Of a stretch of DNA of 64,000 nucleotides, positions 6,418-24,783 are shown piece by piece. Location of the stretch: NCBI GenBank assembly GCA_036502045.1, contig DASXZG010000081.1, positions 22,599 to 86,598 of the forward strand, in the 5' to 3' direction. Position 1 is the stretch's first letter; each line of letters opens with the position of its first letter. A program made the position numbers and the translations under genes. Source of the DNA: Caulobacteraceae bacterium (GTDB lineage Bacteria > Pseudomonadota > Alphaproteobacteria > Caulobacterales > Caulobacteraceae). Below the pieces are notes generated by a model. The model had not been told where the DNA came from. It did no database searches and worked only from the letters and a program-made list of their open reading frames with translations.

Positions 6418-6725
6418 CAGGCGGGGTCGACGATCACAGCGCGCGCCTCGCGGCGGCGCAGAGCGACAGTGCGGTCAGCGAGCTTCACCGCGATCGGATC
6501 GCGGCCCAGAAAGCCCTCGTGCAGGATTTCCACCGGCGCGCCTTCGACAAAGCCCATCTCCAGCAGGCGCCGCTCGATTTCGGACGCGGCGAGGCCGCCG
6601 CTGGCCTGCGCCTCGGCGCGCACCGCCACGATGACGCCGGCAAAGCCCTTACGGCCCGCCGACAGCGGCGACTGCGTCGCTACCGCGCCCGCACCGGGCG
6701 CGTGGAACTCATCGAACTGACGCAA
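6417..6725 (-). CDS. feoA: Ferrous iron transport protein A
   Basis: RRLLEMGFVEGAPVEILHEGFLGRDPIAVKL...VALRRREA (FeoA SH3-like); start overlaps the feoB start region. Confidence 0.92.
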   Translation of the reverse strand: MRQFDEFHAPGAGAVATQSPLSAGRKGFAGVIVAVRAEAQASGGLAASEIERRLLEMGFVEGAPVEILHEGFLGRDPIAVKLADRTVALRRREARAVIVDPA

Positions 6726-15987: not shown

Positions 15988-17049
15988 TCAGGCGTCGCCT
16001 TCCTGAGCCAGGCGCCGGAACTCGCTGGGCTGAATGCCGTAAGCCTGCCGGAACCAGCGCGAGAAGGCGCTGAGGCTTGCGAAGCCCACCAGGGCGGTGA
16101 CCTCGCCCAGCGGCGCGGCCCCGTTCTTCAATTGCTCGACCGCCACCTCGCGGCGCGCCGCCTCCAGCAACTGGGTGAACGAGGCGCCCTCGGCGGCCAG
16201 ACGCCGGTGGATCGTGCGCCGGTCGACGCCCAGCCGCTGCGCCACCTCATCGACGCCGCAGATCCCCTCCGGCAACAGGCGCAGGATCAGCGCGGCCACG
16301 CTGTCGACGGCCGTCGCCGCGTGCGGCGTGGTGTTGGTCTCGATGTAGCGGGCGATCTCGCGCGCCATCTCCGCATCGGTCTCGGGCAGCGGCGTGGCGA
16401 GATCGGCGGCGCTCAGCACCAGTCCGTTCACGCCGGCGCGGAACTCCACCTCGCCGAGAACGCGGCGATAGAAGCTGGTGTCCGCCGGCGCGGAGTGGGC
16501 GAAGGTGACGCGCACCGGCCGCCAGTCCTCGCCCAGCAAAGCCCGGAACATCTGCACGTACATGGTCACCGTCAGTTCGACCATCAGCCGGCTGGAGCGC
16601 GTCCGCGGGCTGAGCAGCATCGGCGTCACCATCAGCCCGTCGCCTTCGGCCTCGACCCGCAGTTCGACGTTTTCGTTCTGATAGCGGAGGTAGCGGCGCA
16701 GCGCCTCCAGCGCCTGGCGCACGTTGGGCTGCTCTCGCATGAGTAGGCCCAGCGGCCCCTTCATCGACAACCGGAATGCTCTGCCCACGTACAGGCCGAA
16801 TTCTTCGCAAGAGGCGGCTCTGGCGGAATCGGCGATCAGCGCCTGCACTTTGTCCGCCGGCACCCGCACGTCGGTCCGATCGAGCGCGGCGACCGGCAGC
16901 CCGGCGCGCCGGAGCATGTGGTACGGGTCGAGACCGAACGAGCTGGCTGCCTCTGCGTAAGCGTTCAGGAGGCCGCTGCGGATGAAGCGAGGCCGAGCCT
17001 CATGCTCTCCGATGTCACCGTATGCAAACTTGACGTCACGACTGGACAA
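15988..17049 (-). CDS. AraC-family transcriptional regulator (long N-terminal ligand-binding domain)
   Basis: C-terminal double HTH (VAQRLGVDRRTIHRRL...VGFASLSAFSRWFRQAYGIQPSEFR); the N-terminus resembles OruR/VqsM-type AraC proteins. Confidence 0.9.
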   Translation of the reverse strand: MSSRDVKFAYGDIGEHEARPRFIRSGLLNAYAEAASSFGLDPYHMLRRAGLPVAALDRTDVRVPADKVQALIADSARAASCEEFGLYVGRAFRLSMKGPLGLLMREQPNVRQALEALRRYLRYQNENVELRVEAEGDGLMVTPMLLSPRTRSSRLMVELTVTMYVQMFRALLGEDWRPVRVTFAHSAPADTSFYRRVLGEVEFRAGVNGLVLSAADLATPLPETDAEMAREIARYIETNTTPHAATAVDSVAALILRLLPEGICGVDEVAQRLGVDRRTIHRRLAAEGASFTQLLEAARREVAVEQLKNGAAPLGEVTALVGFASLSAFSRWFRQAYGIQPSEFRRLAQEGDA

Positions 17050-17321
17050 AATTTGAGTTCCTACTGGCCGACGAGCCCGTAAGACAAATGGTTAACGCCC
17101 GCTCTGTCCCTCCAATTAAGCGCAACATGTGCGCTGACCTTGGCGGACTTCGAGGGCCCTCGCCGACCCCCAAAATATCGCAATGCCGCCACATTTCAAC
17201 CTATCCGGCACCCTGGGTAGAGCAGGGGCAACCGCGAATAGGGTTAACGTGCTGACGACGCCCGGAGCGGCGCCGCTTGCCAACTTAGCCGTAATCTGGG
17301 CTTTTCTTTGGCTTTACTGCG

Positions 17322-17340
17322 TTAATCCAATATTCACCAT
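17322..17340 (+). promoter_or_regulatory. Putative CtrA binding site upstream of the gcrA-like operon
   Basis: TTAA-TCCAATA-TTCACCAT: TTAA-N7-TTAA with one mismatch plus a CCAT tail. A TTAACCAT half-site lies on the minus strand at 17088-17095. Confidence 0.55.
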
Positions 17341-17489
17341 GATGCGCGGGCCGTGCGGCAGCTTGTATCATAGTGACATGTCAGAGCCTCCAGTAGCTTC
17401 AAACTACAGCGACCGACCATCGTCACTGGCCCGCCGGACACTTCTTCGACGTCCGTGCACGGGTGAGGCTCAACCTGGAGGCAAGCGTC

Positions 17490-18035
17490 ATGGACTGGAC
17501 CGAAGACCGTATCTCCACCCTCGCCAAATTGTGGCGCGAAGGCTTTAGCGCCAGCCAGGTTGCGCGGCAGCTCGGCGGGGTTTCCCGCAGCGCCGTGATC
17601 GGAAAAGTTCACCGCCTGGGCCTCGCTGGCCGCGAACTGCCCAGCCGGCCCGCCGCCAGCACCCGCGCCGCGGCCCGCGTTCGCGCTTCCGCTGGTGGCG
17701 TCCGCCGCCAGAGCGCGCCGCGCGCCCAGCGCCCTGAAACGCCGGCCGCCCCTCGCGTCGCTTTCGAAGTCGCGCCGACCGCGACGCTGACCTCGCTCAC
17801 CGAGAGCGGCTGCCGCTGGCCCATCGGCGATCCCGGCGAAGCCGGCTTCGGCTTCTGCGGGCGGCTGCGCAACGGCGCCGGCGTCTACTGCGCCGGTCAC
17901 GCCCCGATGGCCACGCGCCGTCGCGAGACGCCGATGAAGACCAAGGAAATCGACCACATCGTCAGCCGCTACGTCGAAAGCGCCAACTGGTCGCGCAGCG
18001 GTGGCGGCCGCGAAGACATCCGCGCCCTGATCTAG
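17490..18035 (+). CDS. GcrA-family cell-cycle regulator paralog
   Basis: GGAGG RBS then MDWTEDRISTLAKLWREGFSASQVARQLGGVSRSAVIGKVHRLGL (GcrA HTH), a low-complexity linker, and CRWPIGDP...FCG...YCAGH. The C-terminal tail diverges from canonical GcrA. Confidence 0.92.
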   Translation: MDWTEDRISTLAKLWREGFSASQVARQLGGVSRSAVIGKVHRLGLAGRELPSRPAASTRAAARVRASAGGVRRQSAPRAQRPETPAAPRVAFEVAPTATLTSLTESGCRWPIGDPGEAGFGFCGRLRNGAGVYCAGHAPMATRRRETPMKTKEIDHIVSRYVESANWSRSGGGREDIRALI

Positions 18036-18058
18036 AACCCGTCAGCCGACTGCTCGCC

Positions 18059-18721
18059 ATGTCCTCCCCCGTCCTCGACAAGCTGCACGTGATGGTAACC
18101 GGTGTCGACACCGCGATCGCCCGCGACGTGGTGCGGCTGCTGGTGGCCGAGGGCGCGAGCGTGATCGCCGCCGACCGCGACGCCGAAAAGCTGGCCAGAC
18201 TGGATCGGGACGTCGGCCTCTACCGCACGCGGGTCGAGACCGCCGCGATCGACCTCTCCAACATCAGCGAGATCCGCCTCTGGGAAACCTCGCTGCGGGC
18301 CTTCAACCGGCTGCCGCACCTGATGGTTTGCTGCTGCGGCTCGCCTGCCTGCGCGCCGGTCGCCAAAACCTCCGGCGCCCGTCGCCACCTGAGCGACGTT
18401 GCGCTCTCCGAACACAAATCCCGCAACTGCCCGGCCGCCGTGGCCGAGCGGGTGCTGGCGCCGACATTGTTCCTGCATGCCGAGCCGCTGCGGCGCTCGG
18501 CGTTCGACCGCGCCCTCTCGGTGCTGCGCCATCCCACGCTTCGCGGCGTGCTGGAGCGCGGACCCGGCCGCGGCGTCTTCAGTCCCGAGAGCGTCACGCC
18601 CTACGTGCGGATCGCCTCTCACGTCTACTCCATGCGCTGTCAGCTCGACGGTGACGCTCCGGCGCGCCTGCGCCTCAGTCCCCCGACCGCGGACGCGCCG
18701 CGGCAGGCCGGCGCCGCCTGA
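18059..18721 (+). CDS. Hypothetical protein with a degenerate SDR/Rossmann-like N-terminus
   Basis: LDKLHVMVTGVDTAIARDVVRLLVAEGASVIAADRD...AIDLS resembles SDR beta1-alpha1-beta2, but the TGxxxGxG glycines and YxxxK are absent; 23 bp downstream of the gcrA-like gene. Confidence 0.7.
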   Translation: MSSPVLDKLHVMVTGVDTAIARDVVRLLVAEGASVIAADRDAEKLARLDRDVGLYRTRVETAAIDLSNISEIRLWETSLRAFNRLPHLMVCCCGSPACAPVAKTSGARRHLSDVALSEHKSRNCPAAVAERVLAPTLFLHAEPLRRSAFDRALSVLRHPTLRGVLERGPGRGVFSPESVTPYVRIASHVYSMRCQLDGDAPARLRLSPPTADAPRQAGAA

Positions 18722-18744
18722 TCGACTTCAGAAGGAAGCTCGCT

Positions 18745-18993
18745 ATGACCACTCTGATCTTCATCGAGAACGTGCTGGGCAGCGGCCAGGTGGTGAAGCT
18801 CACCGAAGACTTCGGCGACTACTCCGTGTCGCGAGACCTTCGCCCCGGCGAGAACGCGCGGCTGGTGGTCAGCCCCTTCAAGTCGATCGCTGTCGAGGAA
18901 GTGCCGATGGCGCAGTCCGAGACGCCCGCCAACGAAGAACGGCGGATCTTCCATTTCCCGGCCCCGCTGACGCTGGAGCGTCGGTTCGGCTGA
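18745..18993 (+). CDS. Small hypothetical protein (82 aa)
   Basis: AGAAGGAAG RBS, ATG start, beta-rich non-repetitive sequence; 23 bp after the previous gene. Confidence 0.72.
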   Translation: MTTLIFIENVLGSGQVVKLTEDFGDYSVSRDLRPGENARLVVSPFKSIAVEEVPMAQSETPANEERRIFHFPAPLTLERRFG

Positions 18994-19005
18994 CCCCGCA
19001 GTACC

Positions 19006-19030
19006 TCCGGCGGCCCCTCCCGCCGCCGGA
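19006..19030 (+). terminator. GC-rich hairpin after the gcrA-like operon
   Basis: TCCGGCGGC-CCCTCCC-GCCGCCGGA, a perfect 9-bp stem; no U-tract, so it is weak as an intrinsic terminator. Confidence 0.4.
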
Positions 19031-19176
19031 TCGGCGCTCCTCGATCCCCTCGGAAGCGCCATCTTAGACAGGGACGTCGGCCGCGCCTCGATCTTGTGCG
19101 GTTTCGAGCGCTCCGGCGTCCCTGTCGACCTTTTCCTTGCAATCGAGCGTAACCGGCGCGTGCTAGCCTTCCGGGC

Positions 19177-19695
19177 ATGGGCGCGATCATCGTCATCTCC
19201 GGCCCCGTCGGCGCCGGCAAGACCACCGTCGCCCGCGAGCTTCTGGCCCGCACACCGCCGCCCGCCGCCTTCGTCGAGGGCGATGCGTTCTGGCCGTTCG
19301 TCGCCAAGCCCCGGCCACAGGCGCCGCGCCAGCAAGCGTTCCAAACCATCATGAAGGCGATGTTCCGCAGCGCCGCGGCCTTCGCCGGCGACGGCTTCAC
19401 CGCCCTGCTCGATTTCTCCATGCCCCCGACGTTCCTCGAGCGCGCCAGCGCCCGGGTCAGCGACCCGATTCATTTCGTGGTGCTGAAGCCGGCGCTGGCC
19501 GTCTGCACGGCGAGGGCGGCCGAGCGCGTCGAGGGGCGCATCGACGACTACGAACCCTACGCGGCGCTCTACGACCTGTTCCAGGTTCCTGAACGCCACG
19601 TCCTCGCCAACGACGAACTGGCGCCAGCCGCTGCGGCCGCGGAGATTGCGGCGGGCGTACGCGCCGGCCGCTTCCGCTACGCCGCTGAGCCCTAA
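19177..19695 (+). CDS. P-loop kinase (AAA_33/shikimate kinase-like small-molecule phosphotransferase)
   Basis: IIVISGPVGAGKTTVARELL Walker A, FVEGDAF, and lid-like CTARAAER. Confidence 0.8.
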   Translation: MGAIIVISGPVGAGKTTVARELLARTPPPAAFVEGDAFWPFVAKPRPQAPRQQAFQTIMKAMFRSAAAFAGDGFTALLDFSMPPTFLERASARVSDPIHFVVLKPALAVCTARAAERVEGRIDDYEPYAALYDLFQVPERHVLANDELAPAAAAAEIAAGVRAGRFRYAAEP

Positions 19696-22390: not shown

Positions 22391-22807
22391 TTAGCTGGCC
22401 CCGGCTGGGTGGATCAGCCGCAACCGCGGGAAGTAGGTTCGGTAGCGGCGCGCGTCGCGAGTCAGGAGGTCGTAGCCAGCGACGGCCGCGTGTGCGCCGA
22501 TCAGGAAATCCGGCAAGGGAGAGCTTCGGACGCCGCCACGGCGCCGATACGCCAGGAAGGCTTTGCCCGCCAGAAACGCAGCCTCGAACGGTATCTGCTC
22601 GCGCGCGTAGATCGCCGCCGGCAATGCAGCCTCCAGATCCTCGACTCTCTCGAAGCCGACCGAGACCTCGGCGTAGATGACAGCGTTGATGACCAGTTGC
22701 GCCCGCTCGATCGCCGCAGCGAGCGCCCCTTCGGACCACGCAAACCAAGGGCTGTCGGTGGTGAGGGTGTCCAAAAGCACGTTGCTGTCGACGAGGACCG
22801 CCGGCAC
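22391..22807 (-). CDS. vapC: PIN-domain toxin (VapC family)
   Basis: VLVDSNVLLD, YAEVS, PDFLIGAHA, LLTRD acidic PIN motifs; start overlaps the antitoxin stop. Confidence 0.92.
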   Translation of the reverse strand: MPAVLVDSNVLLDTLTTDSPWFAWSEGALAAAIERAQLVINAVIYAEVSVGFERVEDLEAALPAAIYAREQIPFEAAFLAGKAFLAYRRRGGVRSSPLPDFLIGAHAAVAGYDLLTRDARRYRTYFPRLRLIHPAGAS

Positions 22808-23043
22808 TACTCGCCCCGCGTCAGGGCCATGATTTCTTCGGTCGTCATCTTGATGTCGCCCCGATGAGCCCGGAGATGAGCGACCAGCCTTGCGCCTCGG
22901 CCGGGCTTCTTTCCGGCTTCCGAGCGCCTCAGGCGCACATCCACACCATCGAACTCGAACTCGACATCGGTGTTCGGCAGCAGACCCGATCTCTCTCGGA
23001 TTTCGACCGGTATCGTCACTTGGCCTTTGGACGTGATGCGCAT
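22807..23043 (-). CDS. vapB: AbrB/MazE/SpoVT-family antitoxin
   Basis: GGAG RBS then MRITSKGQVTIPVEIRERSGLLPNTDVEF; 78 aa; upstream of the PIN toxin. Confidence 0.9.
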   Translation of the reverse strand: MRITSKGQVTIPVEIRERSGLLPNTDVEFEFDGVDVRLRRSEAGKKPGRGARLVAHLRAHRGDIKMTTEEIMALTRGE

Positions 23044-24242: not shown

Positions 24243-24515
24243 TTGCCGATTATCTCGATCTTCTTCGGGATCGTCGTTCGCATCAACTTCGGCGACCACG
24301 CTCCGCCGCACCTGCACGCCGAGTATCAAGGCGAGGAAGCGTTGTTCGACCTGCGAACTGCCGAGGTGATCGCCGGTCATTTGCCTCGTTCCGCTCGCAG
24401 GTTGGTCACCGACTGGATGACGCGACACCAAGCCGATTTGCTGCGAAACTGGGATTTGGCTTCGAGAGGCCAGCCCACGTTTCGGATTGAGGGTCTGGAC
24501 AATGAGCGTGATTGA
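24243..24515 (+). CDS. DUF4160-family protein (putative TA toxin)
   Basis: MPIISIFFGIVVRINFGDHAPPHLHAEYQGEEALFDL...LLRNWD matches DUF4160; TTG start; codon usage less GC-rich than the flanks. Confidence 0.85.
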   Translation: MPIISIFFGIVVRINFGDHAPPHLHAEYQGEEALFDLRTAEVIAGHLPRSARRLVTDWMTRHQADLLRNWDLASRGQPTFRIEGLDNERD

Positions 24516-24783
24516 CTTGGTGAAGGCTCGAAGTGTCCGCGCCCTACCTGGCCATCAGCTTGAGGTCGAGTTCAGCGATGGTAGCTCCGGCGTCGCATCG
24601 CTGGAGGCATTCGTCCGCCTGGGGCCCATGATGGCGCCGCTGATCGACCCGGAGTTCTTCGTACGAGTGTTCCTTGAGATGGGCGTGCCTACATGGCCGA
24701 ACGGCTGCGACATCGATCCGACAGCGCTCAGAATGCGGATGATCGAGGACGGAACGCTCCATCGGCCGCTTGCGGCGGAATAA
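24502..24783 (+). CDS. DUF2442-family protein (putative TA antitoxin)
   Basis: VRALPGHQLEVEFSDG...L.DP.FF..V......TWPNGCDIDP matches DUF2442; overlaps the end of DUF4160. Confidence 0.85.
   Translation: MSVIDLVKARSVRALPGHQLEVEFSDGSSGVASLEAFVRLGPMMAPLIDPEFFVRVFLEMGVPTWPNGCDIDPTALRMRMIEDGTLHRPLAAE

Follow-up and report, generated by a model that had tools for sequence, protein, structure and literature searches.

A probable gcrB-clade operon with a conserved small partner gene and a CtrA-type upstream box in an uncultured soil lineage of Caulobacteraceae

Among the cell-cycle regulators of Alphaproteobacteria, GcrA is both central and unusual. The canonical protein (Caulobacter crescentus CC_2245; PDB 5YIV, 5YIX and 7YE1) is a sigma70 cofactor that reads N6-methyladenine (m6A) within GANTC, and GcrA-like genes are also carried by Caulobacter phages as host-takeover genes. 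In C. crescentus, the gcrA paralog CCNA_01269, then uncharacterised and 44% identical to GcrA, was given the name gcrB, and overexpression of gcrB partly offsets loss of gcrA (Murray et al. 2013, PMC3885167). No role has been assigned to GcrB since that naming in 2013. Here a 64,000-nt stretch of DNA from a Caulobacteraceae bacterium (contig DASXZG010000081.1, hereafter the window, to the whole of which all coordinates refer) was analyzed and found to hold what is very probably an operon of the gcrB clade in which the regulator gene has a conserved partner and a CtrA box upstream, as judged from sequence comparison. The locus is a lineage-specific form of the known but uncharacterised gcrB locus. 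A preliminary description of the window had taken the unit to be possibly one without any earlier description and this did not wholly hold, the paralog family having been named gcrB (PMC3885167) and the gene pair being present in C. crescentus as CCNA_01269-01270.

The predicted operon is composed of three genes on the plus strand, in the order given below, and is closed by two hairpins.

17490..18035, plus strand: predicted gcrB-clade GcrA paralog, 181 aa, ATG at 17490 and stop codon at 18033-18035
18059..18721, plus strand: degenerate protein resembling short-chain dehydrogenases/reductases (SDR-like), 220 aa, with a match to adh_short at residues 10-73 only
18745..18993, plus strand: 82-aa member of the CCNA_01270 protein family, whose genes are the constant genomic partner of gcrB-clade genes
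19006-19030 and 19033-19060, plus strand: two tandem G+C-rich hairpins identified by folding, the probable end of the transcription unit

Both intergenic gaps, 18036-18058 and 18722-18744, measure exactly 23 bp, and a promoter and terminator scan gave no plus-strand match of either kind between the genes. The first of the 3' hairpins has a 9-bp G+C stem, and the 76-nt stretch 18985-19060 folds with an energy of -35.1 kcal/mol (z = -2.8); a simple terminator scan missed the hairpins at 19006-19060 because they lack a T-run. Paired hairpins are present 3' of the 82-aa gene at most of the related loci in metagenome-assembled genomes (MAGs), and the Caulobacter homolog is followed by a classical T-run terminator. 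No Rfam family was matched between 16900 and 19300, a range covering the leader and the 3' end. The GcrA-family gene, the two genes following it at equal 23-bp gaps and the closing hairpin were thus all found where the preliminary description had placed them. The 23-bp packing and hairpin end suggest that the three genes form one operon, which would be the gcrB operon of an uncultured lineage of soil Caulobacteraceae. The same genes were observed in the JGI soil metagenome 3300036780 (Ga0376652_0000006), in its sister samples and also in soil runs assembled by Logan, and every named relative is a 'Caulobacteraceae bacterium' MAG.

Assignment of the first gene to the gcrB clade rests on a combination of profile matches, phylogeny and clade-specific residues. 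The start codon at 17490 is favoured over a GTG at 17463 by homologs, which begin M/V/L-(D/E)-W at the 17490 position. The regulator matches the Pfam GcrA family (PF07750) with E=1.1e-44 and 153 bits against a cut-off of 26.9, over profile positions 1-150 of 155, and aligns to PDB 7ye1_G and 5yix_B; against the NCBIfam GcrA equivalog NF050816 it scores 148.6 bits and does not reach the cut-off of 280. A scan of genome collections with the peptide patterns SAVIGKVH and WPIGDPGE, which are specific to the window protein, yielded at least 80 loci (referred to below by L numbers), and the next-best matches after the MAG lineage, at approximately 50% identity, were in true Caulobacter genomes. In a neighbour-joining tree of 99 sequences with 500 bootstraps, the window protein grouped with nine proteins of related MAGs and 10 GcrB proteins of Caulobacter, to the exclusion of C. 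crescentus GcrA and a further 10 labelled GcrAs, in 409 of the 500 replicates. The preliminary description had regarded the gene as a GcrA paralog rather than canonical gcrA, to be placed by phylogeny against GcrA and GcrB; this is borne out by the grouping with GcrB and, alongside it, by clade residues, gene neighbourhood and the sub-threshold NCBIfam score. The Caulobacter branch is anchored by the protein at L041 (C. vibrioides), 167 aa in length and 44% identical to the GcrA of PDB 7ye1, in agreement with the published value for GcrB (PMC3885167), which must be CC_1211/CCNA_01269 because it is identical to AAK23193.1 and ACL94734.1 and because arfB (CC1214; PMC4235212) lies three genes downstream. 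The idea that the Caulobacter loci of the scan were canonical gcrA, with the window gene as their ortholog, was ruled out by these same properties of the L041 protein. With C. crescentus GcrB the window protein shares the tree clade, the T32S and N34S substitutions and the CCCH zinc finger, but the window-lineage and Caulobacter proteins are only 51% identical and the C-terminal tail of the window protein is different and longer.

Residues were numbered and mapped according to Wu et al. 2018 (PMC5887438) and the 2023 cryo-electron microscopy paper (PMC9976885). The regulator consists of an N-terminal helix-turn-helix (HTH, residues 1-45), a linker, a CCCH zinc-finger sigma70-interacting domain (approximately 96-142), a basic stretch (RRRETPMKTK) and a tail of approximately 30 residues unique to the soil lineage; canonical GcrA likewise has the HTH, a linker of approximately 50-60 residues, the CCCH sigma70-interacting domain and the basic stretch. 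The DNA-contact residues R33, I37, G38, K39 and R42 are shared with canonical GcrA and do not vary among the window protein and 20/20 GcrB-clade sequences, the sigma70-contact residues W120, F130, F132 and Y142 are kept in common with GcrA, and all four zinc ligands (C118, C133, C143 and H146; motif CRWPIGDPGEAGFGFCGRLRNGAGVYCAGH) are retained. The intact HTH, the Cys motif and the divergent C-terminal tail were already noted in the preliminary description and are upheld at this level of detail, the tail proving to be lineage-specific. Canonical GcrA differs from the window protein in several respects, the latter having N34S and T32S in the methyl-reading helix, T in place of Y151, a zinc-finger spacing of C-X14-C-X10-C-X2-H rather than X14, X9, X2 (one extra loop residue) and the approximately 30 extra tail residues, whilst the window locus has no ABC-2 permease neighbour and its product remains under the NF050816 cut-off. 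Both T32S and N34S are present in 20/20 GcrB-clade members, whereas Asn34 is found in 106/121 family representatives; in GcrA, N34 lines both m6A pockets (PMC5887438, PMC9976885). Because the architecture is retained, we infer that the GcrB-clade protein works in a GcrA-like manner, anchored to sigma70 and with its HTH scanning DNA. As N34S falls in a residue of the m6A pocket, GcrB may read a different DNA sequence or methylation state from that read by GcrA.

The gene most constantly associated with gcrB is the 82-aa gene. When a hidden Markov model (HMM) of this family was run on six-frame open reading frames (ORFs), a match was found directly downstream of 44/44 GcrB-clade genes (10 MAG species and 34 Caulobacter-type loci) but at 0/36 loci with other GcrA types, so that the linkage between the 82-aa gene and the regulator, proposed earlier from the window sequence, is clearly seen. 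In C. crescentus the homolog is CCNA_01270 (ACL94735.1), annotated as hypothetical and located directly after CCNA_01269; it shares 51% identity with the window protein over 49 aa (E=7e-18), and full-text searches turned up no paper in which it is mentioned. There are 235 homologs of the 82-aa protein, 70-87% identical among the best 120 listed, with residues 1-52 nearly invariant. Profile searches of Pfam, NCBIfam, PHROG and PDB sequences gave no match to the protein and Foldseek gave none with E<1, whilst the AlphaFold2 model has five beta-strands at residues 3-52 (predicted local distance difference test, pLDDT, approximately 60-79) and a disordered tail. Within the MAG lineage the 82-aa gene is the best-conserved member of the operon (74-83% identity, compared with 63-70% for GcrB and 81-88% for the housekeeping gene pdxJ). 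The C. crescentus gcrB locus and the soil-lineage operon both have the homologous small gene downstream, followed by a terminator or hairpins, but only the latter has the SDR-like insert. Judged by this gene order, the conserved unit is a pair, gcrB plus the 82-aa gene. The three-gene module envisaged in the preliminary description is therefore upheld in part only, gcrB and the 82-aa gene being paired at every GcrB-clade locus examined and the SDR-like gene being restricted to this lineage and lost or degraded in 4/10 species.

The SDR-like protein retains only a fraction of the fold after which it is named. Its match to Pfam adh_short (28.2 bits, cut-off 26.6) covers profile positions 2-65 of 195, and in the AlphaFold2 model residues 11-97 have pLDDT >85, the N-terminal half being Rossmann-type and the C-terminal part having no recognised fold. 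SDR structures superpose in Foldseek over 80-99 alignment columns only (template modelling score approximately 0.34), and the full Rossmann fold of approximately 250 residues that defines a classical SDR is not present. The cofactor loop TGxxxGxG reads TGVDTAIA in the window and TGVDAAIA in the family consensus, with the second and third glycines replaced; in a 43-sequence alignment (A3) CCCG stands where SDRs carry NNAG, and no conserved copy of YxxxK, the SDR catalytic Tyr-Lys motif, was found anywhere. With the cofactor loop, NNAG and YxxxK all lost, the label pseudo-SDR given to this gene in the preliminary description is apt. The family has an invariant Asp (D39) where strand 2 ends, so some nucleotide binding is conceivable, and it is a matter of speculation whether the conserved residues C91-93, C124, H140 and H158 might bind metal. 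A comparison may be drawn with NmrA-type atypical SDR regulators, which is an analogy from general knowledge. The SDR-like protein resembles these NmrA-type pseudo-SDRs in its Rossmann-type N-terminus, its lack of the catalytic Tyr/Lys, its location next to a transcription regulator and its invariant D39, but it superposes on SDRs over those 80-99 columns only, has a C-terminal half without known fold, and no sequence relationship to NmrA was found.

All 101 homologs of the SDR-like protein belong to the soil lineage, and the near-full-length ones are 49-75% identical, barring one near-duplicate at 99%. The gene is missing in 4/10 species (L012, L013, L015 and L018). Remnants were identified at two kinds of locus. 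In L015 (approximately 6586-6666) the first 27 SDR-like codons are left (E=3e-9), and in L012-type loci a 51-codon ORF matches the SDR-like C-terminus (L095:3826-3981, with the same ORF in L096-L099); at both, the spacer before the 82-aa gene is intact. The two remnants show that the SDR-like gene was present in the ancestor of the soil lineage and underwent deletion on at least two occasions. On this distribution the SDR-like gene is an accessory lying outside the core module.

The alternative that survives best holds that the 82-aa and SDR-like genes are passengers which share the gcrB transcript and have no functional link to the regulator. Neither protein has a recognisable function, the SDR-like gene has repeatedly been lost and linkage alone shows no interaction, all of which would be expected of passengers. 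However, the 82-aa gene has kept its place directly behind gcrB in two lineages with just 51% identity between their GcrB proteins and with wholly different surroundings (44/44 compared with 0/36 at other loci), it is the best conserved gene of the operon, and species that deleted the SDR-like gene kept both the 82-aa gene and its upstream spacer. A functional tie between gcrB and the small gene is best argued from the fact that their linkage outlasts a complete change of surrounding genes. The passenger explanation is consequently considered unlikely for the two genes together, and reasonable for the SDR-like gene alone.

An alignment of the upstream regions of 11 related loci (A1) revealed four elements in front of the regulator gene.

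17243..17248, plus strand: distal GTTAAC, resembling a CtrA half-site, conserved in 11/11 related loci (A1)
17322..17337, plus strand: CtrA-type box TTAA-N7-TTCAC, TTAATCCAATATTCAC, agreeing with the consensus TTAA-N7-TTAAC at 8/9 specified bases and continuing as TTCACCAT
17354..17373, plus strand: promoter-region block with consensus CTGCGGCAGCATGTTGCATCG, an imperfect palindrome around CATG with many invariant columns (A1)
17387..17415, plus strand: block approximately 75-100 nt before the start codon with consensus CCCCAGTAGGGTGAAAATACACCGA (A1), a probable 5' leader element

The last base of the box at 17322-17337 is 152 nt from the ATG. This is the sole TTAA-N7-TTAAC site with one mismatch or fewer in the 64 kb, where 0.20 would be expected by chance, and in 10/11 loci the alignment places a CtrA-type box at this position (-153 to -168 relative to the start codon), five of these boxes being perfect. 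The one-mismatch box reported in the preliminary description some 155 bp upstream is thus conserved, and chance does not account for it. Its 7-nt spacer varies freely among the loci, and since position is fixed and spacer is free to vary, the box behaves as a real binding site would. Between the box and the palindrome at 17354-17373 the other loci have GTTAAGCAC and the window has GCGGGCCG. The palindrome itself, of consensus GCAGCATGTTGC around CATG, lies directly downstream of the CtrA box and might be bound by a second regulator, for example the divergently encoded AraC-family protein described below.

The arrangement in Caulobacter is different. Whereas the soil lineage has a full TTAA-N7-TTAAC box approximately 155-170 bp upstream of gcrB, Caulobacter gcrB promoters have no full box and instead contain an invariant TTGAC-N5/6-TTAACCAT element approximately 60-75 bp upstream. 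CC_1211 appears in the list of direct CtrA targets of Britos et al. 2011 (PMC3073932; from Laub 2002), where it is also given as under cell-cycle regulation and as rising 2.01-fold when carbon is lacking. Because CtrA-type motifs lie upstream of gcrB in both lineages and CC_1211 is a CtrA target, CtrA control of gcrB looks ancestral. GANTC, the CcrM methylation site, is approximately four-fold depleted in the window (65 sites compared with 248 ± 17 expected), and the gcrB operon and its promoter are free of it, there being no site between 16830 and 19467. In Caulobacter a GANTC is found at -125 to -130 from the gcrB start in 24/30 loci (L022-L064) and it is absent from the soil lineage, which hints at an input from methylation or from GcrA that gcrB receives in Caulobacter only.

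A second alternative is that the regulator is the only gcrA of its genome, a canonical ortholog that moved beside pdxJ/spoT, diverged and kept standard GcrA function. In keeping with this, the loci listed in the genome scan include no further gcrA locus from any of the 10 related MAG species, full-alignment identity to canonical GcrA (47%) is not below that to GcrB (44%), and almost all residues that contact DNA or bind zinc are retained. The scan patterns SAVIGKVH and WPIGDPGE could not, however, reveal a canonical copy carrying NAVIGKVH, and canonical GcrAs do occur in Caulobacteraceae MAGs of the same soil project. The tree grouping with GcrB (409/500), the possession of T32S, N34S and a CCNA_01270-family gene in common with GcrB only, an NCBIfam equivalog score of about half the cut-off and the missing ABC-2 permease neighbour all speak against it. 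As regards the last of these, a divergent ABC-2 permease gene nearly always lies upstream of canonical gcrA in Caulobacteraceae, other Caulobacterales and Parvibaculales, often with argD/argF beyond it (canonical loci L031, L034, L053, L055, L059, L061, L084, L091-93 and L180-187, and most metagenome loci), and there is none in the window or at any of the 44 GcrB-clade loci. The permease neighbour can serve as a positional marker distinguishing canonical gcrA from paralogs. In Caulobacter sp. Root655 canonical gcrA and gcrB are found on one contig approximately 217 kb apart. To our knowledge nearly every member of the order has a canonical gcrA, and because of this and of the canonical GcrAs in MAGs of the same soil project it is likely that a separate canonical gcrA coexists with the operon. 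The reading as sole gcrA is accordingly very unlikely.

That the operon is a phage or mobile-element remnant, a domesticated GcrA-like copy with cargo, is extremely improbable, for although the regulator is of one protein family with the GcrA-like proteins of phiCbK-type phages, matches two PHROG families without an assigned function (E=3e-22 and 7e-16; families 16311 and 12262) and has toxin-antitoxin pairs nearby, it occupies a stable chromosomal site with core housekeeping flanks and unchanged placement across 10 species, no integrase or phage structural gene was called within 10 kb, and a viral-contig scan for the 82-aa family found nothing, on which ground phage origin was rejected.

The surroundings of the operon include two genes with recognisable domains immediately to either side.

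15988..17049, minus strand: AraC-family regulator gene, divergent from the operon, with Pfam matches to Arabinose_bd (E=5e-41) and HTH_18
19177-19695, plus strand: P-loop kinase-like gene of the AAA_33 family, 172 aa, resembling chloramphenicol phosphotransferase and located between the operon and spoT

The operon is flanked by pdxJ, acpS, lepB, rnc, era and recO on one side and by spoT and rpoZ on the other. In ten MAG species a 63-70% identical regulator has the same setting, bordered on one side by pdxJ and the divergent AraC-family gene. The AraC-family gene is next to the regulator at all related MAG loci (59-68% identity) and absent from Caulobacter gcrB loci, where the neighbours are cytochrome c, MarR and arfB; its best NCBIfam match is QhpR at 194 bits, under the cut-off of 250. 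A location adjoining rpoZ-spoT, noted in the preliminary description, is correct for the window but is not a conserved feature, being absent in L008/L016 and in Caulobacter. The kinase-like gene is present only in the window, L006/L014 and L019, and the intergenic slot between operon and spoT is therefore variable. Beyond rpoZ lie two toxin-antitoxin-like pairs, at 22391-23043 (minus strand) and 24243-24783 (plus strand), comprising a PIN-domain gene with a MazE-like antitoxin and a DUF4160/DUF2442 pair; a different PIN/VapB pair is found near spoT in relatives such as L006. At L019 (CAVPBP010000002.1) pdxJ, the AraC-family gene, gcrB, the SDR-like gene, the kinase gene and spoT are mostly split into several frames, most likely owing to indel errors of a long-read assembly and not to pseudogene formation. 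At L058 ('Alsobacter soli' MAG, CALRUN020000054.1), labelled Hyphomicrobiales, gcrB and the small gene are almost identical to those of Caulobacter sp. ErkDOM-C (L029), and this locus is a probable case of bin contamination.

A mechanism may be proposed for the gcrB operon of the soil lineage. GcrB would sit on RNA polymerase, like GcrA, through binding of its zinc-finger domain to sigma70 region 2, and would scan promoter DNA with its N-terminal HTH, Ser34 allowing it to read another sequence or methylation state than GcrA does. Expression of the operon would be timed or stress-tuned by CtrA. The 82-aa protein would serve GcrB specifically, as a partner or modulator that might, for example, bind the clade-specific tail or compete at RNA polymerase, and the SDR-like protein would be an accessory that is optional and that may sense nucleotides or redox state. 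Taken alone, this mechanism is tentative and somewhat more likely to need revision than to stand as worded. The explanation as a whole, a gcrB operon of the soil lineage plus the mechanism, is thought moderately probable. A bolder version can also be imagined in which a two-protein sigma70 cofactor system has its methyl reading re-tuned by N34S and its access to polymerase gated by the small protein, with CtrA limiting it to a cell-cycle or starvation window and the pseudoenzyme adding metabolite or redox input; this combination is quite unlikely to be right in full.

Several observations weigh against the interpretation of the locus as a functional gcrB operon acting in this way. The identities of 47% and 44% given above mean that raw identity does not separate the GcrA and GcrB clades. 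Canonical gcrA was not found in an operon-carrying genome, in scans limited by their window-specific patterns and by the matches listed; the best 120 matches of a protein search with C. crescentus GcrA were filled by Caulobacter and Phenylobacterium, and the six canonical GcrAs that were traced to contigs were all on assemblies other than the operon-bearing ones, an NCBI accession comparison finding no operon gene of the same MAG. At position 151 the window protein has T, some relatives have V and Caulobacter GcrB has F, and GcrA requires Y151 for sigma70 binding in two-hybrid assays (PMC5887438, PMC9976885), so that a residue needed by GcrA for sigma70 is replaced by T or V in the soil lineage. 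The window CtrA box is among the weaker copies of its lineage, having one mismatch and missing the adjacent GTTAAGC element of other loci. The model of the 82-aa protein has a mean pLDDT of 60 and, because of this low confidence, no fold-based function is offered for it; nor is linkage of gcrB and the 82-aa gene proof of physical contact between their products. The runs holding the locus are soil DNA runs only, with no RNA run among them. Finally, deletion of gcrB in C. crescentus had no evident effect (PMC3885167).

Taken together, the gcrB operon described here is a good lead for specialists rather than a surprise. The new points are the invariant pairing of gcrB with CCNA_01270, the clade-wide N34S substitution, the optional SDR-derived insert and, with CtrA-type motifs present in both lineages in different arrangements, the positionally conserved full box in the soil lineage. 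Should the gcrB-small gene pair prove inert, the result would shrink to routine annotation of a paralog. The soil-lineage operon provides a natural experiment in which the gene pair occurs with the SDR-like gene, without it and with its remnants. In C. crescentus, for which the full range of genetic tools is available, GcrB becomes testable through its constant partner gene CCNA_01270, the clade-wide N34S and the CtrA-type motifs in both lineages.

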